Source: Candidatus Bipolaricaulota bacterium (GTDB taxonomy: Bacteria > Bipolaricaulota > Bipolaricaulia > RBG-16-55-9 > DRXL01). Taken from it: a stretch of 64,000 bases of DNA. Made by a program: the position numbers and the translations under genes. The stretch spans positions 94,844 through 158,843 of the forward strand of contig CALLJK010000009.1 in the NCBI GenBank assembly GCA_938091745.1. Direction: 5' to 3'. A model generated the notes under the pieces. It did no database searches. It worked only from the letters and a program-made list of their open reading frames with translations, and was not told the DNA's origin. Position 1 is the first letter of the stretch, and the number at the start of each line of letters is the position of its first letter. This document shows, in pieces, positions 47,356 to 48,869 of this stretch.

Positions 47356-48135
47356 ATGATATCCATGAGAGTGATCATATCTCTGAGGCCGGAACGGGTC
47401 CCCTGCACCATCCCGTTCTCTTATTCCCATGATCTCACTGCCGTCATCTATGGGTTCTTAGCACGCTCCTCTCGCGATTACGCACGCTTCCTCCACGACG
47501 AGGGCTATCGCGCCGGCACAAAGCGCTTCAAGCTCTTCACCTTCTCGCAACTTTTGCTCCCAGAGCGCCGGATTGCCCCGGAGGGCTTGGTCTGCCTCAG
47601 CCCTCAGATCTCCTGGCAGATCGCCTCGCCCATCTCCGAATTCGTTGAGCACCTGGCGACGGGGCTATTACAGCTGGGGCAGATGCGCCTTGGGGCCATA
47701 GCATTTATCGTTGAGCGCGTCGAGGTTGCCCCGCAACCGGTGTTCTCCCACGCTATGCAGATGCGCTGTCTTTCACCGATTGTGGCGTCGAGGGCCGAGG
47801 AGCGGGCGGGGAAGCTGGTGGCGAGATATCTGCGCGCGGACGACCCGTGGCTGTCTGAAGCGCTGCGCCAGAACCTCCTGAGAAAATTTCTCTTGGTGCA
47901 CGGGCGGGAGCCGACTGACAGCGCGCTGGCGGTGGAGTTTGACGGCGAGTATCTGCGGCGCAAGGGGAATGGGGTCTATCGCGTGATAGACTACAAGGGC
48001 ACGAAGATCAAAGCGATCATGGCGCCGTTTACAGTCTTGGGCAGCCCGGAGCTTATAGAGCTGGGCTACGAAGCGGGGTTTGGCGAGAAGAACTCTATGG
48101 GCTTTGGCATGGGGGAGGTGATACAATGCGATTGA
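47356..48135 (+). CDS. cas6: CRISPR endoribonuclease Cas6 (copy a, high GC)
   Basis: MRVIISL.. RAMP N-terminus, KRFKLFTFS, and C-terminal glycine-rich loop GFGEKNSMGFGMGEV. Confidence 0.8.
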   Translation: MISMRVIISLRPERVPCTIPFSYSHDLTAVIYGFLARSSRDYARFLHDEGYRAGTKRFKLFTFSQLLLPERRIAPEGLVCLSPQISWQIASPISEFVEHLATGLLQLGQMRLGAIAFIVERVEVAPQPVFSHAMQMRCLSPIVASRAEERAGKLVARYLRADDPWLSEALRQNLLRKFLLVHGREPTDSALAVEFDGEYLRRKGNGVYRVIDYKGTKIKAIMAPFTVLGSPELIELGYEAGFGEKNSMGFGMGEVIQCD

Positions 48136-48869
48136 CAGTCTCATACTCTCTAGACAATAAATATTTGCCGATAGACTATCGACGTGGCTTCGCATCGCTG
48201 CTCAAGGAATCACTCAAGAAAGCCAGCAACGAACTCTTCACGAGATACTATTCGAAATCTCATGTTCTAAAACCTTTCACTTTCTCTATCTATTTCCCTG
48301 AGCTTATAGGAGAGGAAGAAGGGCGCTTTAAAGTCGGCACTAGGGCTGTCCTTAATTTCTCAACTATATCTTATGAGCTAGGGGCCTACATTTACAACGG
48401 ACTATTAGATCATCGCTCGTTTCGCCTTTTTGAGAACTCAGCGCAGCTTATGCATATTACCCTGCGACCATCAGTTGTTATTCGCCAGGAATCAGCGATA
48501 TTTAAAACCATGGCCCCTATCTTGGTCAACAGCAAAGGGAGTGCTGAATGGTATCTCTTGCCAGGTGATGAAGGGTTTGCCCAAAGCTTAAACTTCTCCG
48601 TCAGAGAGCTCGCCCGTACCTTTTTAGGTAAGGCTGAGGTGCATATTGAGTTTCGGCCTATACGTATTCAGCGGAAGGTAGTGCGGCATTATAATATGAA
48701 CATGCAAGGTTTCGTAGGAGTGTTCGAATTGCGCGGCCACCAAGACGTGTTGAACTTAGTCTATCAAATTGGCTTGGGTGTGCGTCGCAGCCAGGGCTTT
48801 GGCATGCTGGAGCTGGTGCGCCAAGGGCCTTATTTAGAACAGGCTGCTTCAGGGGGGAGGCGCTCATGA
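48126..48869 (+). CDS. cas6: Cas6 paralog (copy b, low GC)
   Basis: MRLTVSYSL.., KPFTFSIYF, and C-terminal G-rich loop GLGVRRSQGFGMLELV. Markedly AT-richer than copy a. Overlaps both neighbouring genes. Confidence 0.75.
   Translation: MRLTVSYSLDNKYLPIDYRRGFASLLKESLKKASNELFTRYYSKSHVLKPFTFSIYFPELIGEEEGRFKVGTRAVLNFSTISYELGAYIYNGLLDHRSFRLFENSAQLMHITLRPSVVIRQESAIFKTMAPILVNSKGSAEWYLLPGDEGFAQSLNFSVRELARTFLGKAEVHIEFRPIRIQRKVVRHYNMNMQGFVGVFELRGHQDVLNLVYQIGLGVRRSQGFGMLELVRQGPYLEQAASGGRRS

Follow-up and report, generated by a model that had tools for sequence, protein, structure and literature searches.

Two dissimilar cas6 genes in tandem at the head of a type I-B CRISPR-Cas operon of a Bipolaricaulota bacterium

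The locus described here raises the question of how one CRISPR-Cas operon came to carry two adjacent cas6 genes, and of what each of them contributes. It lies in a 64-kb stretch of a 283-kb contig that was analysed as a whole (the window), and its genes follow the order cas6-1, cas6-2, cas8b, cas11b, cas7, cas5, cas3, cas4, a likely toxin-antitoxin pair, cas1 and cas2. The tandem cas6 genes head the operon, and at either flank lies an array, the two being inverted relative to each other and sharing one 30-nt repeat (Table 1). We consider it fairly probable that this is a chimeric type I-B operon, in which a block of interference genes was transferred as a unit, the resident cas6-1 was kept, and both enzymes act on the same repeat.

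The operon and its two Cas6 proteins

Profile searches place cas8b, cas7, cas5, cas3, cas4, cas1 and cas2 beside a CRISPR array, the content of a type I-B system, and the PADLOC profiles for Cas8b, Cas11b and Cas3b are matched. The cas8b gene further has a weak Cas_CXXC_CXXC match and a GC3 of 0.52. The UPF0175/DUF3368 genes, which we regard as a likely toxin-antitoxin pair, are kept in loci L008-L011. Both arrays were found by a gap-free repeat finder, and neither was reported by Tandem Repeats Finder. The orientation of array 1 was deduced from the ATTGAAAC 3' end of its repeat, its degenerate distal repeat and a promoter-like site in its leader (TTGACG at 47271-47266, an 18-nt spacer and TATAAT at 47247-47242). 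The leaders of the two arrays share a mean column identity of 73% when aligned, with a common -10 block, and the second array carries the repeat of the first in inverted orientation, with one substitution in its last copy. A putative promoter of the cas operon diverges from that of array 1. It was unlisted by the promoter scan, which accepts only T as the sixth base of the -10 hexamer.

Table 1. Features of the type I-B locus, in window coordinates
Feature	Position	Strand	Evidence
CRISPR array 1, 8 repeats x 30 nt; repeat on the transcribed strand CTTTTAATTGAACCAGTGTGGTATTGAAAC; degenerate terminal repeat at the 46490 end	46490..46987	-	gap-free repeat finder
Array 1 leader	46988..47290	-	promoter scan, 11/12 matches
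Putative cas operon promoter, TTGACA, 17-nt spacer, TATAAA	47291..47319	+	read by eye
cas6-1 (upstream, GC-rich)	47356..48135	+	TIGR01877, PF01881/PF21350; PADLOC Cas6b PDLC01782, 224 bits
cas6-2 (downstream, AT-rich)	48126..48869	+	TIGR01877, PF01881; PADLOC Cas6b PDLC01783, 199 bits
cas8b, short form, 369 aa, in low-GC interference block	48866..49975	+	PADLOC Cas8b PDLC01204, 423 bits
cas11b, stand-alone small subunit	49947..50462	+	PADLOC Cas11b PDLC01193, 208 bits
cas7b (Cst2/DevR)	50484..51638	+	PF01905, 163.5 bits; TIGR02585, 161 bits
cas5b (Cas5t)	51657..52502	+	TIGR01895, 123 bits
cas3 (HD nuclease and helicase), final gene of low-GC block	52447..55209	+	TIGR01587, 243 bits; Cas3_HD
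cas4, first gene of host-like adaptation block	55279..55803	+	PF01930, 180 bits; GC3 0.67
UPF0175/DUF3368 gene pair between cas4 and cas1	55852..56519	+	PF03683, PF11848
cas1 (type I-B)	56523..57521	+	TIGR03641, 463.8 bits (cut-off 304.1)
cas2	57918..58181	+	PF09827, 83.8 bits
Array 2 leader	58182..58450	+	homologous to array 1 leader (alignment)
CRISPR array 2, 4 repeats	58451..58680	+	gap-free repeat finder

A preliminary description of this DNA had reported two adjacent forward-strand ORFs (47356-48135 and 48126-48869), each with a KxFxFS N-terminus and a C-terminal glycine-rich loop. Both ORFs are present, and their translations carry KLFTFS and GFGEKNSMGFGMGEV in Cas6-1 and KPFTFS and GLGVRRSQGFGMLELV in Cas6-2. 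The true start of cas6-1 is likely the ATG at 47365, inside the ORF; an AAAGGA Shine-Dalgarno sequence lies 8 nt before it, homologues start with MR, and the protein in the database has 256 residues. The gene is intact in the window and in loci L001, L002, L008, L009 and L011. In L010, a syntenic metagenome contig, cas6-1 is split into two ORFs and cas1 lies in three pieces; this fragmentation probably reflects assembly errors. The downstream gene begins at ATG 48126 and overlaps cas6-1 (TGA at 48133-48135) by 10 nt, with its Shine-Dalgarno sequence GGAGGT (48114-48119) lying within the end of cas6-1. The near-consensus promoter before cas6-1 and these internal start signals suggest that both genes would be expressed from a single operon.

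Both proteins score above the curated cut-off of TIGR01877 cas_cas6 (132 and 110.7 bits for Cas6-1 and Cas6-2, against 58.65) and above that of Pfam Cas_Cas6_C (PF01881; 98.2 and 92.8 bits, against 23). The N-terminal PF21350 profile matches Cas6-1 with 57.6 bits and falls under its cut-off in Cas6-2 (19.5 against 27). The AlphaFold models, with pLDDT of 91.0 and 93.6, each contain two ferredoxin/RRM-like domains and a C-terminal glycine-rich loop, GFGEKNSMGFGMG in Cas6-1 and GLGVRRSQGFGML, with invariant glycines, in Cas6-2. Their best structural matches are Cas6 structures, with TM of 0.78-0.84 by Foldseek for Cas6-1 (best 3ufc, TM 0.84) and 0.74-0.84 for Cas6-2; for both, the best PDB matches are the Cas6 proteins of Pyrococcus and Methanocaldococcus (TM 0.74-0.84). 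The two proteins share 20% identity (E 2e-7), and each best matches a separate I-B Cas6 profile (PDLC01782 and PDLC01783).

The active sites differ. In Cas6-1, Tyr32, His47 and Lys59 align with Tyr31, His46 and Lys52 of PfCas6 (3PKM), and conservation of this triad across 119 homologues is 98% or higher. Profile-profile alignment with hhalign (probability 99.5) puts Lys27, Tyr42 and Lys49 of Cas6-2 opposite these positions, so that the canonical catalytic His and Tyr are absent from Cas6-2. A nearby His46 is His in only 72 of 114 homologues, whereas Lys27, Lys49 and the glycine-rich loop are invariant in the family; His188 and Tyr189 are 97% conserved, and Arg220 and Arg221 of the loop are conserved as well. 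The earlier claim that both proteins have a complete Cas6 architecture thus stands for the profiles, the fold and the loop, which is present in both copies, and fails for the canonical catalytic residues of Cas6-2. The canonical His is widespread in Cas6 without being universal, and its absence is compatible with membership in the family, since an active His-less Cas6 has been documented (PMC3652601). The preliminary description would have called the graft unsupported had one copy lacked the catalytic His and the loop, and as to the His Cas6-2 formally fits this. The absence has no bearing on a graft of the block, however, because it is a trait of the whole Cas6-2 clade, in which the protein is the sole Cas6 of most loci.

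A low-GC interference block in a host-like frame

Base composition separates the two genes. The preliminary description held the first to be GC-rich like the host and the second AT-rich like cas7 and cas3, and the computed values agree: cas6-1 has a GC of 0.594 and a GC3 of 0.750, cas6-2 a GC of 0.469 and a GC3 of 0.500, and cas8b, cas7 and cas3 a GC of 0.45-0.47. From cas6-2 through cas3, GC3 stays at 0.50-0.56, except in cas5 (0.64), and it is 0.67-0.73 in cas4, cas1 and cas2. The GC3 gap of 0.25 between the cas6 genes, over about 250 codons each, amounts to about six standard errors; relative to 37 further long ORFs in the window (GC3 0.657 +/- 0.074), cas6-1 has z = +1.3 and cas6-2 z = -2.1. 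When the operon was scanned by likelihood for two breakpoints, the GC change points fell at 48085 and 55215, within about 40 nt of the cas6-1/cas6-2 junction and the cas3 stop. The same mosaic is found in the relatives L001, L002 and L008 and in Acidobacteriota and Bacteroidota loci (L017, L040, L051 and L052), and the block from cas6-2 to cas3 is low in GC in all hosts examined. Transfer may not be the whole cause of the low GC3 of the effector genes, to which weak codon selection, for example, could contribute; among the genes of the window cas6-2 stands out only at z = -2.1. Comparisons of synonymous divergence are weak, confounded by GC3 bias and saturation.

Sequence comparison with related loci follows the same boundaries. 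The relatives are Bipolaricaulota metagenome-assembled genomes. The species representatives that were scanned, with a best match of 68%, do not include the source genome itself. Identity to the Bipolaricaulota relatives is 69-72% for Cas6-1, in all of them, and 82-83% for Cas4, and Cas1 is 88% identical to that of L008. Between the kept cas6-1 and cas4/cas1, these relatives carry three unrelated interference blocks: Cas8, Cas7, Cas5 and Cas3 of the window are 53-71% identical to those of L008, only about 27% identical to those of L002, and at most 31% identical, over short stretches only, to those of L005, which has cas6-1 without cas6-2. Conversely, a Thermogutta locus (Planctomycetota, L012) has cas6-2 through cas3 and no cas6-1. 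Its block is 54-76% identical to that of the window, the same range as in relative L008, and Cas5 of L008 shares more identity with that of Thermogutta (77%) than with that of the window (70%). Planctomycetota or Acidobacteriota blocks (54-76%) are about as similar to the window's as those of its own relatives.

The second type of block, that of L002, is 58-72% identical to a block in Pyrinomonadaceae (L017), and the cas6-1-like genes of these two loci share only 39% and their cas4 genes only 47% identity. We further note that Cas6-2 of both loci is 61-66% identical to that of the window, whereas the remaining block is only about 27% identical. This mismatch indicates that Cas6-2 is not strictly tied to one set of Cas5 and Cas7, and reflects either a further breakpoint between cas6-2 and cas8b or greatly differing evolutionary rates. 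Genes of the Cas6-1 type also stand in front of other effector blocks in related genomes, namely an I-B block in Poribacteria (L094) and a type III block in Bipolaricaulia (L093).

Taken at the level of sequence, the GC boundaries, the swapped blocks of the relatives and the stand-alone block of Thermogutta demonstrate an origin of the tandem by replacement of the interference block. A host-like, vertically inherited frame, made up of array 1 with its leader, cas6-1, cas4, cas1, cas2 and array 2 with its leader, would enclose a low-GC block of cas6-2, cas8b, cas11b, cas7, cas5 and cas3 that appears to move horizontally as a unit with its own Cas6. The incoming block would have replaced earlier interference genes, with the resident cas6-1 staying at the outer edge, and this would have left two cas6 genes side by side that are not orthologues. 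The graft is an old one, common to a lineage. Both cas6 genes are under purifying selection, with dN/dS of 0.12-0.22 in cas6-1 and no more than 0.07-0.13 in cas6-2, so that cas6-1 is no mere leftover. The proposal that a resident cas6 was retained when a foreign module was grafted in is therefore supported, with two refinements: the age of the graft together with the continued selection on both genes, and the recurrence of the tandem layout in several phyla (see below).

One repeat for two enzymes

The 30-nt repeat of both arrays is CUUUUAAUUGAACCAGUGUGGUAUUGAAAC, and no significant structure was predicted when the repeats were folded as RNA (z from -0.8 to 0). Cas6-1 and Cas6-2 would both bind this weakly structured repeat and are predicted to cut it 8 nt from its 3' end, before AUUGAAAC, leaving the ATTGAAAC 5' handle. 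Cas6-1 may do so with a classical Tyr-His-Lys site and Cas6-2, by analogy with the Sulfolobus enzyme, with a His-less, Lys-based site. Cas6-2 probably passes the crRNA to the Cas5/Cas7 complex with which it was transferred, and Cas6-1 would provide redundant processing, or processing for other effectors. For each family there are complete I-B loci, with repeats of this same class, in which it supplies the only Cas6. The Poribacteria locus (L094) is a classical I-B locus whose single Cas6, at its head, is of the Cas6-1 type. In 47 of 63 loci no Cas6 other than Cas6-2 lies within 10 kb, so that Cas6-2 is presumably self-sufficient.

It is possible, if rather unlikely, that selection has instead favoured the tandem as a functional pair with a division of labour, in which two enzymes serve the system better than one. 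In one version, Cas6-1 would cut or supply crRNA to other effectors and Cas6-2 would mainly be a crRNA-holding Cascade subunit; in another, Cas6-1 would tune Cascade assembly by competing with Cas6-2, like the type III Cas6 of Thermus thermophilus. A canonical Cas6, usually directly upstream, is found in 16 of the 63 Cas6-2-type loci among species representatives (25%), in Bipolaricaulota, Acidobacteriota, Bacteroidota, Ignavibacteriota, Endomicrobia and Atribacterota, and a recurrence across phyla could mean selection rather than repeated accidents. All 17 partner Cas6 proteins have the Tyr-His-Lys triad against Lys-Tyr-Lys throughout the Cas6-2 family, and the upstream neighbours of the partners are housekeeping genes, with no other cas system. 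The purifying selection on both genes would fit such a pair as well, as would the overlap of the cas6-2 start with the cas6-1 end, which suggests translational coupling. Precedents exist in non-catalytic Cas6 homologues (PMC3902920) and in Cas6 competition for the I-B Cascade (PMC12102369).

Other observations speak against such a pair. Most Cas6-2 genes have no second cas6 nearby and their products presumably suffice, and the relative L005 works with Cas6-1 alone. The candidate catalytic residues of Cas6-2 are alike in tandem and solo loci, with Lys27 and Lys49 invariant and His46 variable in both sets. Nor are the partners co-inherited: L050 and L072 have Cas6-2 proteins that are 87% identical and partners that are only 36% identical, and the partners of the similar L002 and L017 blocks have diverged likewise. 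A Mantel-type test of co-divergence between the two proteins gave r = 0.70, a value that we do not read as co-inheritance, since it owes its size to close relatives and some pairs are clearly discordant. The difference in GC3 between frame and block in several hosts is also what repeated grafts predict. We regard as doubtful the further proposition that a Tyr-His-Lys Cas6 directly upstream of a Lys-Tyr-Lys Cas6 constitutes a recurrent, selected two-Cas6 I-B variant in at least six phyla and about a quarter of Cas6-2-type loci. If it were true, one enzyme would process and release crRNA, and the other would stay as a Cascade subunit or gate its assembly.

The preliminary description had also offered a divergence in substrate, with one Cas6 processing the local arrays and the other serving a different array elsewhere. 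The second could also serve another effector in the genome, such as a type III system. The low identity of the two proteins would be in keeping with this, and type III systems often rely on a Cas6 supplied in trans (PMC12669027). The type III block of another Bipolaricaulia genome (L093) has at its head a Cas6-1 relative of 56% identity, and an Armatimonadota relative of Cas6-2 lies directly after type III-like genes. The repeats speak against it: both arrays of the window share one repeat, and in loci with only Cas6-1-type or only Cas6-2-type enzymes the repeats belong to the same class, agreeing at 23-27 of 30 positions and ending alike in ATTGAAAC at the 3' side. The window, moreover, holds no type III system, further array or other cas gene to which one Cas6 could belong, and cas6-1 adjoins array 1 through a divergent promoter region common to both. 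The suggestion thus finds no support in the window or in these loci, and for the genome outside the window we judge it improbable.

It is most improbable that the arrangement lacks functional meaning, with cas6-1 a decaying leftover or the pair a recent tandem duplication: cas6-1 is dispensable in principle, given the Cas6-2-only loci, and is split in L010, but that split was discounted as decay, cas1 on the same contig being fragmented too, the gene is intact in the window and in the other relatives, with a low dN/dS and a conserved triad, and in the window it has a near-consensus promoter and a Shine-Dalgarno sequence, and a recent duplication is ruled out by the 20% identity, with a different best profile for each protein.

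Comparison with known systems

The block-replacement reading makes this locus a clear natural example of a CRISPR-Cas system rebuilt from parts. The exchange unit, cas6-2 through cas3, can be read from base composition and traced across phyla, and the processing enzyme already in place outlasts the exchange and remains under selection. With two very different Cas6 proteins, one operon and one repeat, the locus is suited to asking whether Cas6 identity matters for the loading of crRNA into Cascade, a question opened by recent work in Thermus (PMC12102369). It is otherwise ordinary: all its proteins fall in existing profiles, and module exchange is already known.

As in known type I-B systems, some of which have a separate Cas11b, the operon matches the I-B profiles for Cas1b (TIGR03641), Cas5b (TIGR01895) and Cas7 (TIGR02585), and its 30-nt repeats end in ATTGAAAC. 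It departs from them in the two cas6 genes of different I-B subfamilies at its head, in the toxin-antitoxin pair between cas4 and cas1, and in its two inverted flanking arrays. Known module exchange joins near-identical adaptation genes to unrelated interference blocks, with cas6 found beside either kind of block; here the corresponding identities are 82-88% for Cas4 and Cas1 and 27-70% for the effectors. In contrast to archaeal cases, a second cas6 came in, the resident one was kept, the GC3 step is sharp and the host is bacterial.

Among individual enzymes, Pyrococcus furiosus Cas6 and Methanocaldococcus jannaschii Cas6-1 (3PKM, 3I4H, 5YI6) match both proteins best in sequence and in fold, and their substrate, like the repeat here, is weakly structured; identity is only 20-28%. 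Where PfCas6 has Tyr31 and His46, Cas6-2 has Lys and Tyr, and Cas6-1 keeps Tyr, His and Lys. Sulfolobus solfataricus Cas6 (Sso1437) is active without His and depends on Lys28, Lys51 and Arg231 (PMC3652601); Lys27, Lys49 and Arg220/Arg221 of Cas6-2 resemble these residues in type and approximate position only, and the Sso Cas6 enzymes are poorer fold matches to Cas6-2 (TM 0.53-0.62). Non-catalytic Cas6 homologues such as P. horikoshii PH0350 and P. furiosus 3UFC bind repeat RNA and have neither the catalytic residues nor the activity. For Cas6-2 the indications are mixed: the canonical His and Tyr are absent and 3UFC and 3QJJ rank among its best fold matches, yet Lys27 and Lys49 never vary and it is the solitary Cas6 of most of its loci. 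Assembly of the I-B Cascade is driven by Cas6, which contacts Cas5, and in Thermus thermophilus HB27 Cas6-1 and Cas6-2 can cut the same repeats and both bind the I-B Cas5b, with the choice of Cas6 affecting Cascade assembly and activity (PMC12102369). The pair described here differs from that of HB27 in that its genes are adjacent in one operon and its proteins 20% identical.

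Two cas6 genes at the head of a type I-B locus

The type I-B CRISPR-Cas locus at 46490-58680 of the window has two cas6 genes in front of its other cas genes: cas6-1, the GC-rich upstream copy, which most likely starts at the ATG at 47365 rather than at 47356, and the AT-rich cas6-2. Both ORFs give full-length Cas6 translations bearing the motifs quoted in the preliminary description, and both exceed the cut-offs of TIGR01877 (132 bits for Cas6-1 and 110.7 bits for Cas6-2; curated cut-off 58.65) and of Pfam Cas_Cas6_C, which bears out the description of two complete adjacent Cas6 ORFs. 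Their top PADLOC 'Cas6b' (I-B Cas6) profiles differ (PDLC01782, 224 bits, for Cas6-1; PDLC01783, 199 bits, for Cas6-2). The proteins share only 20% identity (E 2e-7); aligning their family profiles against each other yields a probability of 99.5%. AlphaFold models built on family alignments (pLDDT 91.0 and 93.6) both find Pyrococcus and Methanocaldococcus Cas6 as nearest PDB structures (TM 0.74-0.84).

Features of the CRISPR-Cas locus and of other window regions discussed in the text
Feature	Window position	Strand	Remarks
MmeI/Eco57I-like restriction-modification enzyme (type IIG-like)	10697-14410		1237 aa; GC3 0.45
190-aa ORF	40654-41226	-	GC3 0.45; between alcohol dehydrogenase and RecR genes; no Pfam match
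Array 1			first element of locus; 8 repeats; upstream of leader/promoter region
Leader and promoter region			365 bp, between array 1 and cas6-1
Inverted leader-plus-array copies	46988-47355; 58182-58453		bracket the cas operon
Putative cas6-1 promoter	47291-47319		TTGACA-17-TATAAA, near consensus (read by eye)
cas6-1	47356/47365-48135	+
cas6-2	48126-48869	+
cas8b, cas11b, cas7, cas5, cas3 (in order)		+	3' of cas6-2
cas11b	49947-50462		stand-alone; 29-nt overlap with 3' end of short cas8b
cas4		+	3' of cas3
UPF0175/DUF3368 gene pair	55852-56519		between cas4 and cas1; likely toxin-antitoxin
cas1, then cas2		+	3' of UPF0175/DUF3368 pair
Second leader and array 2			3' of cas2; 4 repeats
MFS and V-ATPase genes	58695-62381		at cas2/array 2 end

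In Cas6-1, Tyr32, His47 and Lys59 align with Tyr31, His46 and Lys52 of PfCas6 and show conservation of at least 98% across 119 homologues. The complete architecture claimed for both proteins holds for Cas6-2 in family, fold and motifs, but its classical active site is absent. The Cas6-2 family carries an invariant Lys27 at the classical Tyr position and a 95%-conserved Tyr42 at the classical His position, with Lys49 corresponding to the classical Lys. Only 72 of the 114 members have the nearby His46; His188 and Tyr189 are 97% conserved, and the G-loop Arg-Arg is conserved. Active histidine-free Cas6 enzymes relying on Lys28, Lys51 and Arg231 are known in Sulfolobus (PMC3652601), as are Cas6 homologues without catalysis (PMC3902920). 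A survey of one genome per species found 79 loci with Cas6-2 relatives, 63 of them with enough flank; since 47 of these 63 have no Cas6 within 10 kb other than the Cas6-2-type protein, we lean towards an active Cas6-2.

An intact cas6-1 is present both in the window and in five independent relatives; its dN/dS is 0.12-0.22, against at most 0.07-0.13 for cas6-2 (rough values, as synonymous sites are near saturation). A Shine-Dalgarno sequence precedes cas6-1. The start of cas6-2, preceded by a GGAGGT motif, falls within cas6-1, 10 nt from its end, so co-transcription of the two genes is almost certain and translational coupling possible.

We further note that cas11b matches PADLOC PDLC01193 (208 bits) and has no meaningful match in Pfam or NCBIfam.

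Base composition of the operon

The contrasting composition attributed to the two genes is confirmed: GC is 0.594 in cas6-1 and 0.469 in cas6-2, and GC3 is 0.750 and 0.500, or +1.3 and -2.1 SD relative to the window's 37 other long ORFs (0.657 +/- 0.074). GC3 is 0.52-0.53 in cas8b, cas7 and cas3. When the operon is scanned for two breakpoints without prior bias, the GC shifts fall at 48085, some 40 nt ahead of where cas6-2 starts, and at 55215, at the cas3 stop, separating segments of GC 0.604, 0.469 and 0.525. The same pattern, a low-GC3 block (the interference genes cas6-2 to cas3) against high-GC3 cas6-1, cas4 and cas1, is found in every Bipolaricaulota relative examined. The contrast is also present in Acidobacteriota and Bacteroidota loci, and the block is low in GC3 in Thermogutta too, against 0.82 for a host gene there.

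The MmeI/Eco57I-like gene, the window's other strong outlier towards low GC3, is probably also horizontally acquired. The 190-aa ORF looks like a lineage-specific insertion, since its neighbours are adjacent in the syntenic contigs L008-L011.

Exchanged interference blocks in a stable frame

The contexts of relatives, identities across phyla and the GC3 mosaic together show a stable frame (array, cas6-1, cas4, cas1, cas2, array) with exchanged interference blocks, some bringing their own Cas6. The tandem pair is the by-product of this exchange, through the grafting of a INTERFERENCE block. Most homologues of the two Cas6 proteins come from Bipolaricaulota (Acetothermia) assemblies. Among these relatives, the window layout is matched by L001/L014 and by L008-L011, the latter sharing upstream synteny (PriA, PLD, ADH, RecR, DnaX, UvrC and a cNMP-binding gene). 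In L002, cas6-1, a small toxin-antitoxin pair and cas6-2 precede another effector set, whose Cas8 is long (629 aa) and which lacks a separate small subunit; in L005/L006, cas6-1 and two toxin-antitoxin pairs precede a third effector set, and cas6-2 is absent. Across Bipolaricaulota relatives, identity is 69-72% for Cas6-1, 82-83% for Cas4 and 88% for Cas1, while the window effectors are 53-71% identical to L008, about 27% to L002, and can hardly be aligned with those of L005.

The Thermogutta (Planctomycetota) locus contains cas6-2, cas8b, cas11b, cas7, cas5 and cas3 without any cas6-1. Its block proteins are 54-76% identical to those of the window, no more distant than L008, whose Cas5 is 77% identical to Thermogutta and 70% to the window. 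Identity between the L002-type block and that of a Pyrinomonadaceae (Acidobacteriota) genome is 58-72%, against only 39% for the neighbouring cas6-1-like gene and 47% for cas4. The earlier proposal that a resident cas6 was retained beside a graft is supported with refinements (purifying selection on both genes, recurrence of the layout). More remote relatives of Cas6-1 come first in a classical single-Cas6 I-B locus (Poribacteria) and in a type III block (Bipolaricaulia).

In the latter (L093 4751-18774), a 56%-identical relative lies behind cas4, cas1, cas2 and an array whose repeat belongs to the window's class, and heads a type III-like block of RAMP proteins, a 1024-aa protein and embedded nucleotidyltransferase genes. 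The MAG closest to the window, SKYB132 (Bipolaricaulota; L014 and L018), carries another cas6-2/cas8b/cas11b/cas7 block, located on a 4-kb contig of its own (Cas6-2 57% identical); it is either an additional locus or a strain variant that was co-binned. In the Thermogutta locus (L012), palindromic repeats of 30-44 nt (GGACCTGACAAGCAGGTCC...) form a cluster of about 1.7 kb (7927-9626) between CRISPR array and cas6, with more copies elsewhere in the locus (3441-3548); they are probably a REP- or MITE-like element family.

Arrays 1 and 2 have a common 30-nt repeat in opposite orientations, and homologous leaders (73% identity), both with a promoter-like TTGACG-18-TATAAT. Transcription of array 1 therefore runs along the minus strand, leading away from cas6-1, and that of array 2 along the plus strand. 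In L002 and L005 the MFS and V-ATPase genes adjoin the cas6 end of the operon, in the window its cas2/array 2 end, so an inversion of the whole operon seems to separate the lineages; recombination between inverted leaders or arrays is a plausible cause. The UPF0175/DUF3368 pair is kept in syntenic contigs (L008 17718-18388), and the 3' flank of the upstream cas6 in relatives gathers other pairs (DUF4258/DUF2283, HEPN/nucleotidyltransferase, Phd/ParE; L002 7584-8084, L005 10782-12182, L095 9764-11273). With such toxin-antitoxin-type pairs at them, the block junctions look like insertion hot spots.

Recurrence of the layout and known systems

HMM classification of the ORFs in the 63 Cas6-2 loci detects a canonical Cas6 in 16, usually directly upstream, in Bipolaricaulota, Acidobacteriota, Bacteroidota, Ignavibacteriota, Endomicrobia and Atribacterota. 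In some, a WYL/HTH regulator or TPR protein lies between the two genes; housekeeping genes lie further upstream. The partner is not co-inherited with Cas6-2: L050 and L072, for example, have Cas6-2 proteins 87% identical beside partners only 36% identical, which fits repeated grafting. A selected functional pairing of the two proteins is the less likely reading.

Substrate divergence, the alternative raised earlier, is not supported by the repeats of the eight loci compared. One repeat class, with 23-29 of 30 bases as in the window repeat, occurs with Cas6-1 only, Cas6-2 only or both; the last eight bases are ATTGAAAC in seven of the eight loci, and L054 ends in ATTGAAAT. We found no further array in the 64-kb window. 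The repeat folds weakly, with a 4-bp ACCA/UGGU stem directly before AUUGAAAC that lacks statistical support. A relic status of cas6-1 is rejected, given its intact gene, low dN/dS, conserved catalytic residues and expression signals.

Several Cas6 paralogues per genome, cross-processing and Cas6-dependent Cascade assembly have been described (PMC3902920, PMC12102369, PMC6061681), and a Halococcus I-B locus, noted in passing, likewise has two cas6 genes (PMC13321033). All components belong to known families and the evolutionary process is already known; what is new is the particular lineage, the sharply defined exchanged unit and the recurrence of the two-Cas6 layout.
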